DNA from: Eledone cirrhosa
Taxonomy: Eukaryota
Direction: 5' to 3'
Length of the DNA stretch: 64,000 nucleotides
Assembly (NCBI GenBank): GCA_964016885.1
Contig: OZ024751.1
Coordinates: forward strand, 7,378,001 to 7,442,000
Notes under the pieces: model-generated
Database searches by the model: none
The model's input: the letters and a program-made list of their open reading frames with translations, nothing else
Told to the model about the DNA's origin: nothing
Translations under genes and position numbers: made by a program
Shown here: positions 2,600-59,430 of the stretch, piece by piece
Layout: every line of letters begins with the position of its first letter
How positions within the stretch are numbered: the stretch's first letter is position 1

Positions 2600-3390
2600 A
2601 TAAACAGAAAAAATGAAACGAAATTTAATTTCCCACTCTTAGTACGGCTGTTACTTACATATAAGTATTTACACGTACCTACATATATGTATACAGACGT
2701 ACAGTAGTATGTATATATATATACATACATGCACACATATATATATGTACGTATGGATTCACCGAACATTTATTATAATGTTCGGTGTGTTTGTAAACAA
2801 ACATCGCGTATTAAGCCGTAGTGTCTAGCAACCATCGTTGCTCATGTGTTCAACACTGACAATCCATACGTACATATATTTATATGTGTACATGTATGGA
2901 TATTTATATACATACTACTGTACGTCTGTATACATATGTGTATGTACGTGTACATACTTATATTCAAGTAACAGCCGTACTAAGAGTGGGAAATGAAATT
3001 TCGTTTCATTTTTTCCGTTTATTATTTTCGGTGCACCCGGCCGATTAACCCACTCGATATGCAAATTGGGCTACTCAGCTGTTAATATGCATAAGGTAAG
3101 TATATACGTTCAACGATCTGGCAGGAAGGTATACATTGCTGACGATAGCTAATAAGCTTGAAACTAGTACAATGTTCCTTTGTCAGTGTTGAACAAACGA
3201 GCAACGATGGTTGCTAGACACTACGGCTTAATACGGGATGTTTGTTTACAAACACACCGAGCATTATAATAAATGTTCGGTGAATCCATACGTACATATA
3301 TATATGTGTGCATGTATGTATATATATATATATATACATACTACTGTACGTCTGTATACATATATGTATGTACGTGTACATACTTATATA
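2600..3390. mobile_element. Retrozyme-like family A (about 434-nt unit), inverted partial copy plus more than one unit forward
   Basis: Same sequence as at 13.9k, 24.6k, 33.7k and 60.7k; strand switch near 2862; TA-flanked; contains an HHR. Confidence 0.85.
3133..3175 (+). ncRNA. Type I hammerhead ribozyme, family A
   Basis: ACAUUG-CUGACGA-UAGCU aaua AGCUU-GAAA-CUA-GUA-CAAUGU; stem I 6 bp, stem II AGCU/AGCU, palindromic stem III ACUAGU. Confidence 0.9.
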
Positions 3391-6074: not shown

Positions 6075-6732
6075 GTTAGGATTGGAGCTCTTAAATAGCG
6101 ATGGATGTATACATAGTATAGTATATCTATGGTATATTTGGCAATATACCGTATGTTTAATTTAAAACATTTTGAAGAACTCATTTTTAAAGTAGTGACT
6201 ATGTCACTTACTTCTTTTTTCGGCATAAGAATCCAACCTCTATAATTTTCGCCAAAGGCGGGCAGTACGTTGCTCTGAGGATCGCCAACAGCGTGAAACA
6301 GACTCTGTTAGCTTTTCTGCATTCTTTTGCCGAAAAAAGTAGTAAGTGACATAGTCACTACTTTAAAAATTATACCGCAAGGTCTTTAAAGTGTTTTAAA
6401 TTAAACATACGGTATATTGCCAAATATACTATACATACATTCATGTATACATGGCTATTTCAGAGCACCAATCCTAATACCTAATGTTTGCTGGACCGGC
6501 AATCGCTCGGTATATTCAGCTCCTGATTATTACTGGAATTCTATAAGAATCCAGCCACTATAATTGTCGTTGCTCTGAGGATCGCCAACAGCGTGAAACA
6601 GACTATGTTAGCTTCTCTCCCTTCTTTTGCAGAAAAAAGAAGTGACATAGTCACTACTTTAAAAATGATAGCGCAAGGTCTTCAAAATGTTTTTAATGAA
6701 ACAGGTATATTGCCAAATATACTATATATACA

Positions 6733-6740
<8 letters not shown>
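6075..6740. mobile_element. Retrozyme-like family B' (300-nt tandem unit) with inverted 5' fragment
   Basis: HHR cores at 6275 and 6575 (period 300); 6075-6225 is the reverse complement of part of the unit; related to the 8.7k and 14.7k repeats. Confidence 0.8.
6271..6313 (+). ncRNA. Hammerhead ribozyme (family B'); second copy at 6571..6613
   Basis: GCU-CUGAGGA-UCGC caaca GCGU-GAAACAG acu CUGUU-AGC; short stem I. Confidence 0.72.
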
Positions 6741-6807
<67 letters not shown>

Positions 6808-8631: not shown

Positions 8632-8689
<58 letters not shown>

Positions 8690-8694
<5 letters not shown>

Positions 8695-9285
8695 TGTATA
8701 TATAGTGTATTTTGCAATACCCTGTATGCTTAATTAAAAGCATTTTGAAGACCATGCGCTAATGTTTTCAAGTAGCGACATTGTCGCTTACATAAGTTTT
8801 CGGCAGACAGGGGGAGATAAGTTGACAGCGCTGTTTCGTACTAATTATGTGTTGGATTCTTATAGAATTCCAGTAACAATCAGAAACTGATTTTACAGAA
8901 CGGTCCCACGCCCAGCAGGAATTGAAAATTAGAATTGGTGCTCTGAAATAGCGATATATATATATGAATGTATACATATTGTATTTTACAATACATTGTA
9001 TGTTTAATAAAAATGACTGTTACTGGAATTCTATAAGAATCCAACATACATAATTTTCGGCAGACGGGGAATGTAGTGAGTTTTGATAAGTACCAACAAG
9101 TACGAAACAGCGCTGTCAACTTATCTCCCGCTGTCTGCCGAAAATTTATGTAAGCGACAATGTCGCTACTTTAAAACAATAGCGTATGCTCTTCAAAATA
9201 CTTTTAATTAAGCATACAGTGTATTAGAAAATACACTATATATATATTCATATATATATCGCTATTTCAGAGCAGCAATTCTAAT
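8690..9285. mobile_element. Retrozyme-like family B, head-to-head inverted copies
   Basis: 8690-9010 minus and 9015-9285 plus orientation of the same unit, between TA tracts. Confidence 0.8.
9078..9122 (+). ncRNA. Hammerhead ribozyme with U3-A8 core (family B)
   Basis: GAGUU-UUGAUAA-GUAC caacaa GUAC-GAAACAGCGCUGUC-AACUU; GUC cleavage triplet. Confidence 0.85.
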
Positions 9286-9290
9286 ATATA

Positions 9291-9349
<59 letters not shown>

Positions 9350-14707: not shown

Positions 14708-15450
14708 TATAAAATTAGAAATGGTGCTCTGAAATAGCGATATATATATGAATGTATATATAGTGTATTTTGCAATACACTGTATGCTTAATTAAAAGCA
14801 TTTCGAAGACCTTACGCTATTGTTTTAAAGTTGTGACAGTCTAACTTACTTTAAAGTTTCAGCAAACAGGGCAGATAAAGCTGACAGAGCTCTGTTTCGT
14901 ACTGATTGGTACTTATCAAAGCCAAGTACTCCACCTGTTTGTGAAAATTATGAATGCTTGATTCTTATAGAATTCTAGTAATAATCAGGAATTGATTTTA
15001 CAGAGCGGAATAAATTGGAAGAAATTGAAAATTAGAAATGCTGCTCTGAAATACCGATATATATATGAATGTATATATAGTGTATTTTGCAATACACTAT
15101 ATGCTTAATTAAAAGCATTTCGAAGACCTTACGCTATTGTTTTAGAGTAGTGACAGTCTCACTTACATAAAATTTTCAGCAAACATGGGAGATAAAGCTG
15201 ACAGAGCTTTGTTTCGTACTGATTGGTACTTATCAAAGCCAAATACGAATTTTAATTAAGCATACACTATATATACATTCATATATATATCGTTATTTCA
15301 TAGCAGCATTTCTAATTTTAAAAATTCTGCCTGACCGGCAACCGCTCTGTATAATCATTTCCTGATTATTACTAGAATTATATAAGAATCAAGCATTCAT
15401 GATTTTCACAAACAGGTGGAGTACTTGGCTTTGATAAGTACCAATCAGTA
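14708..15450 (-). mobile_element. Retrozyme-like family B, 317-nt tandem plus inverted copy; U3-A8 HHRs at 14879..14923 and 15196..15240
   Basis: Reverse complement reads GGCU-UUGAUAA-GUAC caauca GUAC-GAAACAGAGCUCUGUC-AGCU; period 317; 15250-15450 is inverted. Confidence 0.85.
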
Positions 15451-19463: not shown

Positions 19464-19544
19464 TAAAATAACAGATTAAAGTTTAAGCAAAAAATCCCTG
19501 CTTTCACCCTTAACGGGATCTTCTCTAGTAACATTGTCACAAAT

Positions 19545-19813
19545 GTAAGGTTGAAACACCCACGTTTCGTAGGGCCTATATAGTGTTAACCGCCAATAGA
19601 TTCAAGCAGCGTCTTTACATGCATACCCATTCTTTTCTTAACACGTTAAGAAGGAATATGATGTCACTTTCAGCTTATAACTTGTGTCTAAAAGACAACC
19701 ACACCCAATATAAGTTACGCTGGGATATCCTAGCTAAGGCTAGATCGTATAACGGAAATAAAAGACCATGTGACCTATGCGCCGCTGATGCCCTGGAAAG
19801 GCTCTACGCTTAA
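19545..19813 (+). pseudogene. Penelope-like (Naiad-type) GIY-YIG endonuclease fragment
   Basis: TANRFKQRLYMHTHSF...SLSAY...[22 protein letters not shown]. Confidence 0.8.
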
Positions 19814-22583: not shown

Positions 22584-24580
22584 ATATATACTTGCAAACA
22601 TACTGATTGTGTAGAGATAGTTGAAGTTTTCATGGCTGGATAGTGAGTTGCATAATATATACTGGAGTTATTGGAGTTATATAAACAGTTGTCTGCTATG
22701 GGTAACCTACTTAGTCGGCTTAGTTCTCTTAAACAAAATACACAATAATCTACCTTACCTCAACGGTAGTCTATATCGATACAACGCACTCTTCCTCTTA
22801 GACTAAAAAAGTTCAATATAGAAAGAACCAGGAAACAATTACATAAAGTTTTTAAAAACTATAACTTAGGTATCACTTTAGATAAAAACACCAAAAATGT
22901 TAACTTCCTGGACATCACTCTCTACTTAGACTCTAAAAAATACACACCTTACCATAAACCCAATGAAACACTTTTCTATGTTAATACCAACTCTAACCAC
23001 GCTAAATCTTTACTGACCTCAATCATTAAAGGGGTATCCAATAGAATCTCTTGCCTTTCTTACAACCAGAATACATTTAAACGTAACTCCCAATACTATA
23101 ATAAAAAATTAGCCCGTTCAGGCCATAGAGATAACATTAAATTTAAACCTAAATCGTCAACCACCCATAGATAACCTAATATCATTTCACACAACATGGC
23201 CATGAATAAAATTAAATATCAACGTAGTATTGTAATTCCAGATTCATGTACAAAGGGCCCCATAAAAAAAGTTAAATCAGACCACAGCAATGACCATAAG
23301 AAACACCACAGAAAGAAAAATATAAATATGAAGGAATCTAACCCCACACTAAACAGTAGTATGAATAACAACCATAGGAAAAATAGAAGTAGCACATTTT
23401 TTAACCCTCCGTTCAACTTAAATGTATCAACAAACATACCTAAAACTTTCTTCCCTACTCTAGACAAAAACATCCCAACTAACATTACATACCATTTAAC
23501 AAAAACAATTAAAATGTCCTACTCCACCACACCTAACATAGGATACCATATAGCCAGCACCAACAAGAGAAATATTGAAAAGTACTTCAAACTACATCAA
23601 AGTAATAATGTCCAGCATAGAAATAAACTGAACAACAACACAGTAGATGACCATACAAGTCATACTAATAATACAAATAGTAATCACACTCACCATAATC
23701 ATAACACTAGAAGTAGAAACAGAAACAACCACTCAAATGCACACCCCTCAACCAGTCTACTATTAAACAAAACAATTGTAACTGTAGGCCTAACAAGACA
23801 TGTCCATTAAATAAGAACTGCCTAATTAAAGACATTGTCTACTACGGTACTGTAACCGCCAATCACATCTCGAAAGTATATATAGGCTCTACATCGAATA
23901 GCTTTAAGACCATATATAGTTCACACCTTGATTCGTTCAGAAACCCTAAACTTAGTAACGTAGACTCAATATCCACATACATACACTCATTGAAATCAAG
24001 TAATATACCATACACCTTAAAATGGGAAGTGATAGCTAAGGCCCCTTCATATAAACCACCTAACAAATTTGGTAACCTTTGCATCCTCGAGTCTAAAAAT
24101 ATTATTCACTCTAACCTTAGCCTACTAAACAGGAAATCAGAGATCTTCTACACGTGTCCACATTACCATAGATTCTCGTTCCAATACTTCAAACATAGCA
24201 ACTAATAATAATAAAAATAAAAATAAAGACCAATGTCGGAGATAACACTAGACCACCACCTTGTAATTTATCCAACTAGACCTTCATTTATCCAACTAGA
24301 CCTTCATCTATCCAACTAGGCCTTCGTGAATATAGGAATACACCTTAATTAAAGACCACACTGACCTACATACTGTCAATAAACACCAGTTTGATCTATT
24401 ACATTATACAATGAAAAGATTTAAATTATATAGACAACCTAATAAATTCCCAATAAACAACACCAACTAAATAGGAGACAATTGTGTATATAACTCCAAT
24501 TACTCCAGTATATATTATGCAACTGACAATCCTGTCATTAAAAACTTCAACTATCTCTACACAATCAGTATGTTTACATG
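22584..24580 (+). mobile_element. 5'-truncated Naiad-type Penelope-like element (RT, thumb, GIY-YIG) with inverted terminal copy
   Basis: WVTYLVGLVLL, LYRYNAL, VNFLDITL, YHKPNETLFYVNTNSNH, FFNPPFN, CNCRPNKTCPLNKNCL, VYIGSTSNSFK, LCILESKNI..LLNRKSEIFYTCPH; 22584-22694 is the reverse complement of 24476-24580. Confidence 0.9.
24268..24326 (+). repeat. 20-bp tandem repeat, 3 copies
   Basis: ttatccaactagaccttcat repeated in the PLE 3' UTR. Confidence 0.9.
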
Positions 24581-40205: not shown

Positions 40206-40830
40206 GTCCGCTTTTAAAACCCACTTTTTATCATTTCACCACAGAAATGTTGGTCTGAACTTGTATGTGGAGGTTGAAGCCTTTAAATAAAACTGTAAGT
40301 TCTTTCCTAAACCTGTCGCTAGCGCGGGGACCGCACTTGGTCATGGTCAAAATACTGTCATCGTGGTACAGGCCTCCTCCGCATACATTATGGAATTTTT
40401 CCTTGATAATGAAAAGTAGGAAAAGGCCGATAAGATCTGTAACCCACGCCGAATCGCTGTCGCCCATACACACGTTGAATGGAGTACTATTATAATTTTT
40501 ATCCAAATAGAGTGTGTCGAAATTAATCACCGACTTACGGGCATTTAGGATGAAATCAATATCGAAATCCTTAACCACCGTTAGCATTTTAGCGAAATTG
40601 ATAGCTCTAAGAAGGATTGGTAAATTGATGGAAGAGTAGTATTTTTTTTTATGTCAAATTGGGTAAAGCGGCAATGTTCTTTGTTGCCTATGCCATTGAA
40701 CCAATCAATCACTGCGAAAGAAATATTCCACAGGGCAAGAGGGGCCAAGCTTCTAATTTCGGGTATAATTCTATCTAAAAGTATTTTACTATGTCTGCCT
40801 AAATCGGATTCGTAGGGTTTAATAGCCGAA
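40206..40830 (-). pseudogene. Naiad-type PLE reverse-transcriptase fragment
   Basis: FNVCMGDSDSAWVTDLIGLFLL...GGLYHDDSIL...DRFRKELTVLFKGFNL. Confidence 0.85.
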
Positions 40831-44986: not shown

Positions 44987-45850
44987 ACAGAAACCAAAGA
45001 ACGCTTACATACTCAAATAGTATTTATTTACTTATATTGTTTCATCCTCACCTTTTGACAGGAATCCTCAGAGCCTAATAAATAGTGTTCAGTATAAGCT
45101 CCACGAACAATCAGAATAAAAAAACAAAATTATTTACTCTTTTAATTTCCTAATTTTTTAATTTTTAAATTTTTGAAATCTTTTGAATTCTTTTTAACTT
45201 TTAATTTTATTATATTATTATATCATTTTAATATCTTATTATTTTTTATTATTTTATTATTTTAATTTTATTATTTTTCATTATATTTTATTAATGTTTT
45301 TAATTATTTTATTTTATTTTATTATTTTTATTATTTTTATATTTTTTATTAATTTATTATAATTTATATTGTTTAACCTTTGTCTGTAGTTTTTATGTAT
45401 TTTTTTATGCTTTTGCATTTTTTGCTTTTGCATTCCTTGTTTTTGTGTGCCATCTATTATATCTCCATGTTGTTGAATCCGCTTATGCCCTTGCATTTAG
45501 CAGCGAAGCTTAACAACACCAGCATGCACCTCTTTGTTCGCCATCTCCAATCTCCCTATCTTTATTCTGATTGTTCGTGTGACTAGGTGTATTTATTAGG
45601 CTATGAGGATTCCTGCCAAAAGGTGAGGATGAAACGTTGTAAGTAAATAAAGACTGATGAGTATGTAAGCGTTATTTGGTTCCTTTTGAATATAACGGCT
45701 CTGTTCTTGTACATTGAGCTAACATAATACTGCCATAATACAGTACGGTGCGTGCGTATTTATGCACAAACGTTCCGTGCTTTACGTAAATAAATAAATA
45801 AATCAATCTCTCTCTATATATATATATACATATATATATATATAAATATA

Positions 45851-49659: not shown

Positions 49660-49950
49660 TTCTATATATATATATTATGTTCTATAGGTCAATGATTTAC
49701 AACAGTACAATGATACCGCAAATGATTCTATTTTCCTTCTGTTCCATATACATTTTGTTCTAAATATTAAGCAATTTCATTACTTTTTCTTTCAGTAATC
49801 TGTTACTCATTTGTCAACTGAAAGAAAAAGTAATGAAATTGCTTAAAATTTAGAACAAAATGTATATGGAACAGAAGGAAAATAGAATCATTTGCGGTAT
49901 CATTGTACTGTTGTAAATCATTGACCTATAGAACATAATATATATATAGA
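49660..49950. repeat. Fold-back of a repeat that also occurs at 51420..51570
   Basis: 49660-49796 is inverted at 49817-49950 with a 20-bp spacer; no HHR seen. Confidence 0.85.
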
Positions 49951-56574: not shown

Positions 56575-59430
56575 TAAATCATATCTTTACAAAGCTCTTA
56601 CAGACGTTTCCCTTAATGGTGCTCGTCTGAGGCAGATATTAAGGTAATGTTTTAATTATATACCCTATTCCGGTAAAATAATAATTTTACATCACAGTGC
56701 ATATTAAATATACGTGGTTAAGTATAAAACACGGTGGGATGAGATTAGTATGCTAAGGGAGGTAATTACCGATGATACTAAAACGTTTCGTCTCTAACTA
56801 ATGTCCTCTGCCCACTATGTAAAATGTTTTACTTTATTATTTAAAAGGAATTAACATAAGTACGGTTAGTCAACTCAGTGTAAATGAGGCCGTGTTAAGG
56901 TGTGAGTATGAATAATTAGTAAAGTCGTTAAAGACCACACACAGTTTTAACTAGTGCAATGGTGCACGTTAGGTGCGGATCTGCAGGCCTAGAAAAATAA
57001 AGTCAATTTGGATATAATTTGTATATTCATATGAATAATTGTCTAAGAAGTTGCATGGGTATAGGCAGCATTTCTCTAAGATTACCCAAAGACCAGTCAG
57101 GCCAAGTGGAAGAATATAGCGGGGTAGACCCGGTTGAATATAGGCAGTGCGGCTTCCTGGTGGGAAGACAGAGGGTGGATGATGGGGTTATTCCACGTTG
57201 TTTAATGTTACGTCTACCGCCGGTAAGTCAGGCCAGGCTGTGGTGTTGCGAGCATCAGGTGTTGTGGTAGTTATACAGTTGTTGGGGTCCATCTGTGGAA
57301 AGATGATTGTAGTGGATGGCCGAAATTGATGACAGTTTCAGCCCAACTATTTATGAGCTCTTGGGGTAATACAGTTCCATTAGACATAGTTGGCAGCTTT
57401 TTTTAAAATTGTATGGTTTTGCTTGATTCACAATTTCCCAATGAGTGGTGTTAGAGTCATTTCATTGGGTAATATAGTTAGCGAGGGAGGTAGAGTATCT
57501 AAGCTTCCTACTCCTAAAAGAGGGGAGATGTGCTCGAAATCTGGTCTTGAACGCCCCAGAAGTAGCTCCTATGTAATACTTAACACTATTATGACTAGTA
57601 ACCGTGAATCTATATATAAAATTTCTAGTCAAGCAGTAGCCTCGGAGTGGACAGTTTACAGGGTTACGACAATTGCAATGTTGTTTGTTGTCACCTCTAA
57701 AGTGGTGAGTGTTGGTGTTCATCGTATTACTATTAGTATCACCATCACCATAGCTACCATTGTTGTAGTTGGCATTATTATAGCTATAAACACGCGAAAT
57801 GGTGCAACGCTCACCTCTCGTGGTATAGTGTCTTCTACAGCCGTTATTAGAGCTGCTATGGTTTCTAACCCTGTCGTCGGTCACACTACTGCTGCAGCAG
57901 TTAGTTTCTAATGTGGTGCTATTATGTAATCTACTGCTAATACTAATATACCTGTTCTGGTTACTACTATCATTGTCGTGCGGGGCGAGAGAATTGTTAA
58001 GGTTAACCGAGTTGTCATATTCCCTAAAATTCTCATTACTAGCATGTTGTATTCTAGTGAGCTTGCTGTGGTTACTTATTGCTATGAGGTCGGCTAGATT
58101 AGGTGGAGTGGAATTGATTTTTACGTTATTCTTATTGAAGATGTTTCTGTATCTGTGGTTAGGGGCAAAGTTCCTCTCTAAGGCGTCGCAAAAGATACTG
58201 GGTAAATTGGAGACCACACTCCGAGAGTAGGGTGGGGGGGATGGAACCATAGGACATTAGGACGGCGATTACGTATATTTCTGGGGTTACTACGAGGGTT
58301 ATTGCCTTGGTAGGTGTCCCTATAAGGGCTATAGGGATTATGTATAACCTGTGCTCTGTTGGTATTATGCCTGAGTGCACAGGCACACCCAGTGCGGCGG
58401 TTCAGAGTTACCCTAGGCGGATTAGAAGGTGTAGGTAATAAACCGTCACCTTTATTAAGCTTGTAAGCGGGGAATAATTCCAGTAGGCTGCAGTTACTCC
58501 TATTATTAGCCGGACCATGATGGTGGGTGTATGGTAATATATCCGTCCCACTAGCTTTATGGTTATGATGCGGGCCGTAGCTAGTGGCATTATTAGCTCC
58601 TCTAATACCGTTTACGCTTGTAGGGCCGCTGTGGCGTTGGTTATGTGTATGGCTAGCTATAACACTGGAACTACACGAGGGGGCTTTATAGAGCCTGCGA
58701 CATGGAAGTATGAAATGTTGCTGTTATAACCTGAATCAGCCAATGCCTTGTTATAATAATCAGCAGTCTGGTTAAAGAGGTCTTCATTAGCAGAAAGTCT
58801 CGAGATGCTATGTGAGATGCTATACACAATAGAGTTGATTGTATATTTAGGGTGGTTGGAAGCATAGTTGACGTAGGAAAGGACCTCATCAGGCTTGTGG
58901 TATGATCTGTATAAGTCGGTACCTAATTCTAACGTAACATCTAAGAAATTAACTATATTATTTTTGTGGTAGATAGTTACAGAGAGGCCATATGATTTTA
59001 AAGAACTTGTGTATATGTTTATTAAGGTTTTCTATCCTACGGAGGCTATGGTTCTTTACGGTGTCTATCGTCCCTATATACACCGCCTTGAGTCACAGGG
59101 ATCTCGTCTCTAAGTCTGTGCAGGAGGTAAATTCCGACCAGGTCAGTTGCCTGCGCTGAGACACTTGATCCCATCGTGATATCAAAGTTATCAGGACGGT
59201 TAGTTCTGGTCCAGTAGGACCCTCGAAATGAACAATGTTTCTTTTTAGTTAAACTAGTCTTAGATCTAGCTAAGATGAGTGCCTTATTTAAGAGGCGGAG
59301 TAATTGTCTATGTCGAAGTGGATAAATTTCAGAGATGACTTATCAGGTAAATCTGTGAACCATTTAATGACCTGGTCGGTATTGCTTCATAGCTTTACTA
59401 TTAAATTCAGGTATTATCCTATTGAGGATA
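56575..59430 (-). mobile_element. Naiad-type Penelope-like element (RT to GIY-YIG plus 3' UTR), degenerate
   Basis: MGSSVSAQATDLVGIYLL near 59125-59175; VNFLDVTL; YHKPDEVLSYVNYASNHP; ORF 57462..58250 PPYS...CNCRNPVNCPLRGYCL...YYIGATSGAFKTR. Confidence 0.9.

Follow-up and report, generated by a model that had tools for sequence, protein, structure and literature searches.

In hammerhead ribozymes, the pair between positions 3 and 8 of the core holds the 2'-OH of nucleotide 8 in place for acid catalysis, and its consensus form is C-G. The window analysed here, a stretch of 64,000 nt on a contig of a 3.0-Gb, apparently octopod assembly (1796 contigs), AT-rich and full of (TA)n microsatellites, holds copies of a repeat whose core reads UUGAUAA, that is, with U3 and A8. 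This raises the question whether the double change is a trace of decay or a compensatory change in an active site which still has to work. A preliminary description of this DNA took the latter view, on the ground that the change had been fixed in a propagating family, B. However, fixation in one propagating lineage is no proof of selection, since all copies inherit the changes of their founder; as shared inheritance alone could explain the fixed double change, the test lies in what changed later.

Hammerhead copies in the window

A structure-based search of both strands re-found UUGAUAA in the B copies, at 9083-9089 (+), 14919-14913 (-), 15236-15230 (-) and 15431-15437 (+), and CUGAGGA in the related family B' at 6275 and 6575, both as first described. 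In the structure-based scan of the whole window, complete UUGAUAA hammerheads occur at 9083 (+), 14919 (-) and 15236 (-) (Table 1). The claim that every B copy has perfect stems and a GUC triplet is true of the 9083 and 14919 copies, where a perfect 4-bp stem II, a palindromic stem III (10 and 12 nt) and GUC are accompanied by U4, G5, A6, A9, G12, A13, A14, the A15.1-U16.1 pair and the NUH triplet. It fails for the 15236 (-) copy, which has an A.C mismatch within stem III and a truncated upstream stem I, and for the 15431 (+) copy, which breaks off within the 3' arm of stem II, at 15450, and is without GAAA, stem III and GUC. A deletion has removed the 5' half of the core from the fifth B piece, which lies at 8682-8960 (-).

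Structure scan, alignment and folding all give three helices around the core, open at stem I, which is the type I layout. In the 9083 (+) copy, U3 lies at 9083 and A8 at 9088, stem II is formed by 9090-9093 and 9100-9103, G12-A14 occupy 9104-9106, the palindromic stem III covers 9107-9116, and C17 is at 9117, with the predicted cut at 9117/9118. Positions 9045-9155 fold with a z of -5.25, and 0 of 200 shuffles were as low. The CAA..A loop II and the internal loop of stem I, candidate elements of a tertiary contact, are conserved and align weakly to the Rfam model HH9.

Table 1. Hammerhead cores and repeat copies of families B and B' in the window
Feature	Positions	Strand	Details
Type I hammerhead core, subfamily B1	9083..9117	+	structure scan and folding
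Extended stem I round the B1 core	9053..9146	+	proximal 9076-9082/9118-9124, internal loop, long distal helix
Sense copy of ~320-nt repeat	8931..9285	+	terminates in (TA)n at 9284-9344
Inverted partial copy of ~320-nt repeat (fifth B piece)	8682..8960	-	terminates in (TA)n at 8634-8704
Intact U3-A8 core, subfamily B2	14883..14919	-	12-nt palindromic stem III, GUC
U3-A8 core in tandem, 317 nt upstream of 14919 copy	15200..15236	-	structure scan
B2 head-to-tail tandem	14714..15246	-	317-nt cut-to-cut monomer; self-comparison
Inverted partial B2 copy	15262..15450	+	UUGAUAA at 15431-15437
B' hammerhead, C3-G8	6275..6309	+	U.U at 10.1-11.1, GUU triplet
Second B' core, C3-G8	6575..6609	+	tandem at 300 nt; stem III mismatch, U.U at 10.1-11.1, GUU
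B' insertion, inverted piece plus tandem	6076..6749	+	72-76% identical to B over whole unit

The B' copies had been presented without irregularities, their U.U at 10.1-11.1 and GUU triplet having been missed. They belong to a small group (window 6275 and 6575; loci L081, L088 and L108) with a common GUU triplet and a stem III of its own. In stem II of B', pair 10.1-11.1 ranges from A-U to U.U, and pair 10.3-11.3 shows a compensatory change.

Other elements were noticed as well. Family C, an unrelated abundant hammerhead repeat, occurs at 3139 (+), 25278 (-), 25533 (+) and 61064 (-), with related pieces near 13.7-14.4, 24.6-25.9, 33.7-34.3 and 60.7-62.5 kb; it has C3-G8, a U.U mismatch at 10.1-11.1, GUA as its triplet and a palindromic stem III that is very short, and its tandem and inverted pieces measure about 450-600 nt. 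Further C3-G8 families (L069, L099; G000:C1), with purine-rich stem II types and a family G with an 8-nt loop, show that the genome harbours several hammerhead repeat lineages. An inverted pair at 45603 (+) and 46277 (-), 98% identical over 459 nt, carries a hammerhead-like A3/G8 motif with a long stem II, which may be due to chance or decay. A long near-perfect hairpin at 49734-49879, with arms of about 60 nt and a weak MIR2646 score far below gathering, is possibly a small inverted-repeat element.

Pairing of positions 3 and 8 and its switches

The pattern of the B context has 1243 exact matches in the genome against 0 for its reversed control, and is thus not a product of chance. In the B stem-II context of the whole genome (n=1260), U3A8 occurs 1226 times, a figure obtained by subtraction, and the 34 others differ at one position: U3G8 11, A3A8 9, C3A8 6, G3A8 5, U3C8 3 and C3G8 0. 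With stem II left free, the whole genome gives 2173 U3-A8, 1246 C3-G8, 61 U3-G8 and 63 C3-A8 motifs, counts that take in some distant or unrelated families, while the reversed controls give 3, 2, 4 and 6. Positions 3 and 8 are Watson-Crick paired in 3419 of the 3543 motifs, the U-A form departing from the C-G consensus. The tabulation of both positions that had been suggested at the outset shows that they do not vary independently, with 124 mixed states against about 1650 expected under independence (phi 0.925). Stems of many subfamilies occur among these 124 motifs, of which the 22 in the flank tree fall on both sides, as expected from decay after insertion; none of 11 groups is a propagating lineage with a mixed 3-8 state. 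The unpaired core letters are the same across the sampled subfamilies, an invariance partly built in, since the search patterns fixed most core letters and the scripts required three of four stem II pairs.

The expectation that a CUGANGA descriptor would miss the U3-A8 copies was borne out, and censuses based only on that descriptor can overlook most hammerheads of a large family (here 2173 of 3543 motifs). Nor is the oversight limited to U3-A8 copies: Rfam, applied to 12 loci of which five are C3-G8, reached a gathering score in 0 of 12, so that it overlooks the C3-G8 relatives too.

Regarding what changed after the switch, 110 U3-A8 B copies were available among 222 motifs extracted with at least three of four stem II pairs required. 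Pair 10.2-11.2 is U-A in 74 of them and C-G in 32, pair 10.4-11.4 is C-G in 88, U-A in 15 and U.G in 4, pair 2.2-1.2 is C-G in 65 and U-A in 33, and C17 is present in 106. The same stem variants appear in the unconstrained motif list (11 and 9 among the first 100 matches listed, counted by eye), and the C-G form of 10.2 has 910 exact genome matches, with A8 in 98 of the first 100 listed. In an alignment of 36 rows, which are hand-picked and related copies, 92.4% of cells are paired and 17 of 30 pairs are altered on both sides, with slid controls at 33-45%; 0 of 500 shuffles were as high on four of five measures, and the pair-type count was not above the shuffles (431/500). These data support the conclusion that the hammerhead fold remained under selection after the U3-A8 switch, stems I-III changing by compensatory pairs. 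A dependence of U3-A8 on G10.1-C11.1 was also considered and rejected: the pair is held in 100 of the 110 B copies, but 229 U3-A8 motifs lack G10.1.

The search for U3-A8 without G10.1, which gave those 229 matches, brought families D, E and F to light; judged by eye, D makes up about half of the first 100 matches listed. Throughout its flanks, family D shows homology to B and B', and its exact motifs are U3-A8 in 74 of 78 and C3-G8 in 0 of 78. Most copies of D (L197-L208) have, besides U3-A8, a C.A or A.A mismatch at 10.1-11.1, which makes two departures from consensus within one amplified hammerhead.

A single U3-A8 origin, which a one-branch split in the first trees had indicated (172/220 and 189/222 rows), was overturned by families D, E and F. 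The mapping of the switch on a tree of B and B', proposed in the preliminary description, does set B apart from the C3-G8 family B', but the switch is not a single event once these families are added. The IQ-TREE tree of 74 rows (at most 8 per group from 162 classified copies, positions 3 and 8 masked) is a ladder that runs from E/F (U-A) through G (C-G), D (U-A), B' (C-G) and S2 plus S1 (C-G) to B (U-A). B', S and B group without D at a support of 100/98, the B clade (97/98) is nested in C3-G8 relatives, and a clade of B and D is rejected (p-AU 4.5e-7; 0.0011 with flanks only). The branch from S to B measures 0.048 per column, and the flanks alone split B from C3-G8 copies with 0 errors in 156, at a support of only 0.78. 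The flank-only tree requires three changes of the 3-8 pair, of which strongly supported branches force two; the third is uncertain, since the flanks of families E, F and G share only 38-59% identity with those of the other families, and, the root of the tree not being known, one change may be a reversion to C3-G8. Within one repeat family, both members of the 3-8 pair have thus changed together at least two times, or three if the distant families count. Such a repeated paired switch likely means that the RNA must still cut itself to spread. The claim of selection rather than decay, for which fixation in one lineage was insufficient, is upheld by the later compensatory stem changes together with the repeated paired switches.

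Could U3-A8 have arisen once, a short recombined tract (by template switch or gene conversion) then moving the core from D or a relative into B? We consider this unlikely, though worth keeping in view. All differences between the heptamers of B and its C3-G8 sister, at positions 3, 7 and 8, match family D, a 14-nt stem II segment occurs in both B and D, and the subfamilies coexisted, with a median copy divergence of 1.5-7% for the B, S and B' groups. However, the tract would have to be 6-7 nt at most, since B agrees with the C3-G8 sister, and not with D, at position 2.1 and throughout stem II; the B flanks are nearer to S than to D (5' 0.75 vs 0.67; 3' 0.85 vs 0.70), and U7 is present in C3-G8 copies too.

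It is distinctly improbable that the core is dead or dispensable, the repeat spreading without cleavage, its stems being kept for RNA stability and the C-to-U and G-to-A changes being AT-biased changes of a founder. Both changes are indeed GC-to-AT transitions in units of 32-37% GC, U3-A8 was weak in one mutagenesis (PMC9901934), and A3 in 4 of the 11 recognised cores of an array described below indicates that broken cores were copied by local duplication. Yet the 3-8 pair matters only in the catalytic fold, and both of its bases have changed together, on short branches, at least twice; the 11 groups include no mixed-state lineage, and the likeness of the unpaired core letters in the sampled subfamilies, partly built in by the patterns, points the same way. 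CpG decay as the cause of the core changes was dropped because the nearest C3-G8 sister has G or A at position 7, and A-to-I editing because the direction of the changes is wrong.

The repeat unit and its probable route of spread

The units repeat head to tail and are non-coding, with no internal body and no LTR. Among 27 cut-to-cut spacings below 700 nt, 14 fall at 317-320 nt and 8 at 631-643 nt. Monomers (n=16) are 300-327 nt long with a GC of 0.32-0.37, and 15 of the 16 fold as circles with z < -2 (12 shuffles each). The repeat thus shows several marks of a non-LTR retrozyme, namely a type I hammerhead in every unit of a tandem whose units measure 150-450 bp, low GC, and the lack of coding sequence and LTR, and we consider it likely from its sequence that the ~320-nt repeat, with thousands of copies in the genome, works as one.

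A typical insertion, at L170, consists of (TA)n, an inverted truncated piece, three tandem units and (TA)n again. At 94 U3-A8 loci, 3' ends lie 140-144 nt after the cut site in 66 of 122 cases and 165-174 nt in 41, so that 107 of the 122 use one of two end points, which differ by about 25-30 nt; TA-rich DNA follows in 83 of these 107. Both orientations are present in 51 of 83 distinct loci. The insertions end in (TA)n, where target-site duplications, which exceed 4 bp in non-LTR retrozymes, cannot be read. The largest array noted, L159 (G000:C1:82388500-82398400), has about 18 units in a 320-nt phase and 11 recognised cores, four of them with A3, which shows a broken core copied by local tandem duplication.

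No repeat unit was contiguous with a reverse transcriptase (RT) frame in the 8 large loci examined, tblastn of six RT/endonuclease-like peptides against 196 loci and the window gave no contiguous RT plus GIY-YIG frame, and no autonomous helper element linked to the repeat was found among the loci searched. RT/GIY-YIG-like fragments do occur in the window (19538-19798, 22830-24193, 40237-40823, 57465-57677 and 58687-59288) and at L164 and L166. Pfam gave no name to four such fragments scanned from L164 and L166, and their resemblance to Penelope-like RT with a C-terminal GIY-YIG endonuclease is one of familiar motifs and mutual tblastn matches. As RT-like fragments are common in the window, at five places, their nearness to copies is no evidence of a link; at L164, other DNA and a microsatellite separate the repeat copy from the RT-like frame.

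Tandem and inverted end structures have been described for Penelope-like insertions (PMC8557442), and a preprint derives animal retrozymes from Penelope pLTRs (bioRxiv 10.64898/2026.07.22.740005). Given that the layout of the copies, the gap of about 25-30 nt between the 3' end points and the (TA)n targets match such insertions, the repeats might be taken for solitary pseudo-LTRs of truncated autonomous Penelope-like elements and not for independent retrozymes. We hold out little prospect for this account: the units keep a 317-320-nt phase, up to about 18 of them in L159, their 3' ends enter (TA)n and not a reading frame, the copy at L164 is parted from the RT-like frame, and stem III is of full length, unlike that of pLTR min-hammerheads.

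The best explanation, in which we have considerable confidence, is a U3-A8 type I hammerhead within a ~320-nt repeat, likely a non-LTR retrozyme, that would cleave and be reinserted. Tandem transcripts would cut themselves after GUC, likely as double hammerheads joined via the palindromic stem III, the freed ~320-nt monomers would be ligated to circles, and a Penelope-like enzyme would reinsert them at (TA)n. Transcription, cleavage, dimer use, circularisation and the Penelope-like helper are steps that we infer. The U3-A8 form would likely keep the Watson-Crick pair needed for placing the 2'-OH of nucleotide 8, and selection on cleavage would likely remove lineages with a mixed pair. The U3-A8 hammerheads here are likely to be catalytically active.

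Cofolding of two copies gave a double hammerhead through the palindromic stem III in 3 of the 3 cases tried. Over 180 copies folded, the lowest-energy fold of the dimer is a double hammerhead for 46 of 99 U3-A8 and 8 of 51 C3-G8 copies, and a different fold for the other 53 U3-A8 dimers; a perfect palindromic stem III is found in 51/99 and 6/51, respectively. Monomers are predicted to misfold, core bases 3-5 slipping onto the CAG of stem III, with a median open-core probability of 0.006. In folding models, U3-A8 lifts this probability 48-129-fold in B and D contexts, but only 2-15-fold in C3-G8 contexts and in an unrelated family. The idea that misfolding explains the switch is only partly borne out, since the C3-G8 sisters are, in their own context, as open as B or more (0.06-0.09 vs 0.001-0.014). 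It is therefore a speculative and rather unlikely suggestion from the models that the repeated toggling of the 3-8 pair in the superfamily, which the full tree puts at three times, has a structural cause: a C3 core (CUG) could slip onto the CAG with which stem III begins and so shut the ribozyme, and U3-A8 would weaken this trap, allowing perfect palindromes and a wider spread. If it were true, a two-step fitness valley in the active site of a ribozyme would have been crossed in nature, and more than once.

Relation to known hammerheads and retrozymes

Both U3-A8 hammerheads and animal retrozymes are already known, and the motif itself is unsurprising. The tolerance of the core is said to depend on surrounding elements, according to the title of Przybilski and Hammann (2007), and Lunse et al. 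have reportedly dealt with Penelope hammerhead dimers. Among Rfam hammerhead models, the best for the 9083 copy is Hammerhead_HH9 (RF02275), which scores 16.6 bits (E 0.08; gathering score 52) and aligns its core, stem II loop and stem I. On the whole window, the 150 Rfam matches listed, of 288, were only microsatellite-driven microRNA matches.

The rarity of U3-A8 implied by the preliminary description does not hold, as natural cases have been published (PMC3088659), including about 1,300 copies of one kind (PMC4209133). Perreault et al. 2011 (PMC3088659) report that C3-G8 covaries to U3-A8 in several natural, rare examples, that U3-A8 is active in vitro according to an earlier study, and that U.U occurs at 10.1-11.1, a variant which the B' copies match. 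In contrast to those rare variants, U3-A8 here outnumbers C3-G8 by 2173 to 1246 in the class counted. In pairwise mutagenesis of a type III hammerhead (PMC9901934), only the G3-C8 swap rescued, and the other double mutants, U3-A8 included, had low activity; the accessible parts of PMC7151607, PMC2920678 and PMC2837043 give no rates for U3-A8.

The copies amplified as min-hammerheads are those of the Cercyon Penelope-like elements of Schistosoma mansoni (Cervera and de la Pena 2014, PMC4209133). They resemble the present family in the U3-A8 covariation, amplification, escape from a C3-G8 descriptor, Penelope-type context and dimer model. However, the Cercyon motifs have a helix II of 7-8 bp and a nearly absent helix III, whereas the copies here have a 4-bp stem II, a stem III of 10-12 nt and a long stem I, and so fall outside the Penelope min-hammerhead form. 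The accessible text of PMC4209133 gives no tree of the 3-8 switch for these elements, and in the literature searched, which left subscription papers and supplements outside its scope, we found no report of repeated 3-8 switching in one element family.

The nearest relatives by layout are the non-LTR retrozymes of animals, molluscs included (Cervera and de la Pena 2020, PMC7229834), with which the repeat shares a type I hammerhead, tandem units of 150-450 bp, a GC below 45-50%, the lack of LTR and ORF, and a well-paired monomer. Xenopus retrozyme dimers failed to cleave in vitro in 8 of 9 cases (bioRxiv 10.64898/2026.07.22.740005). Unlike the retrozymes of PMC7229834, the present family has U3-A8 in its largest lineages, a palindromic stem III of 10-12 nt and a frequent inverted partner copy. 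As an element it is of an ordinary kind, and its core variant is known, yet it offers an unusually clear natural record of a compensatory change in an active site: to the known systems this genome adds natural subfamilies, in a dated series, from before and after each of at least two paired switches, and such matched natural sequences make it possible to test which surrounding elements allow the 3-8 pair to depart from the consensus and whether cleavage is required for the spread of retrozymes.
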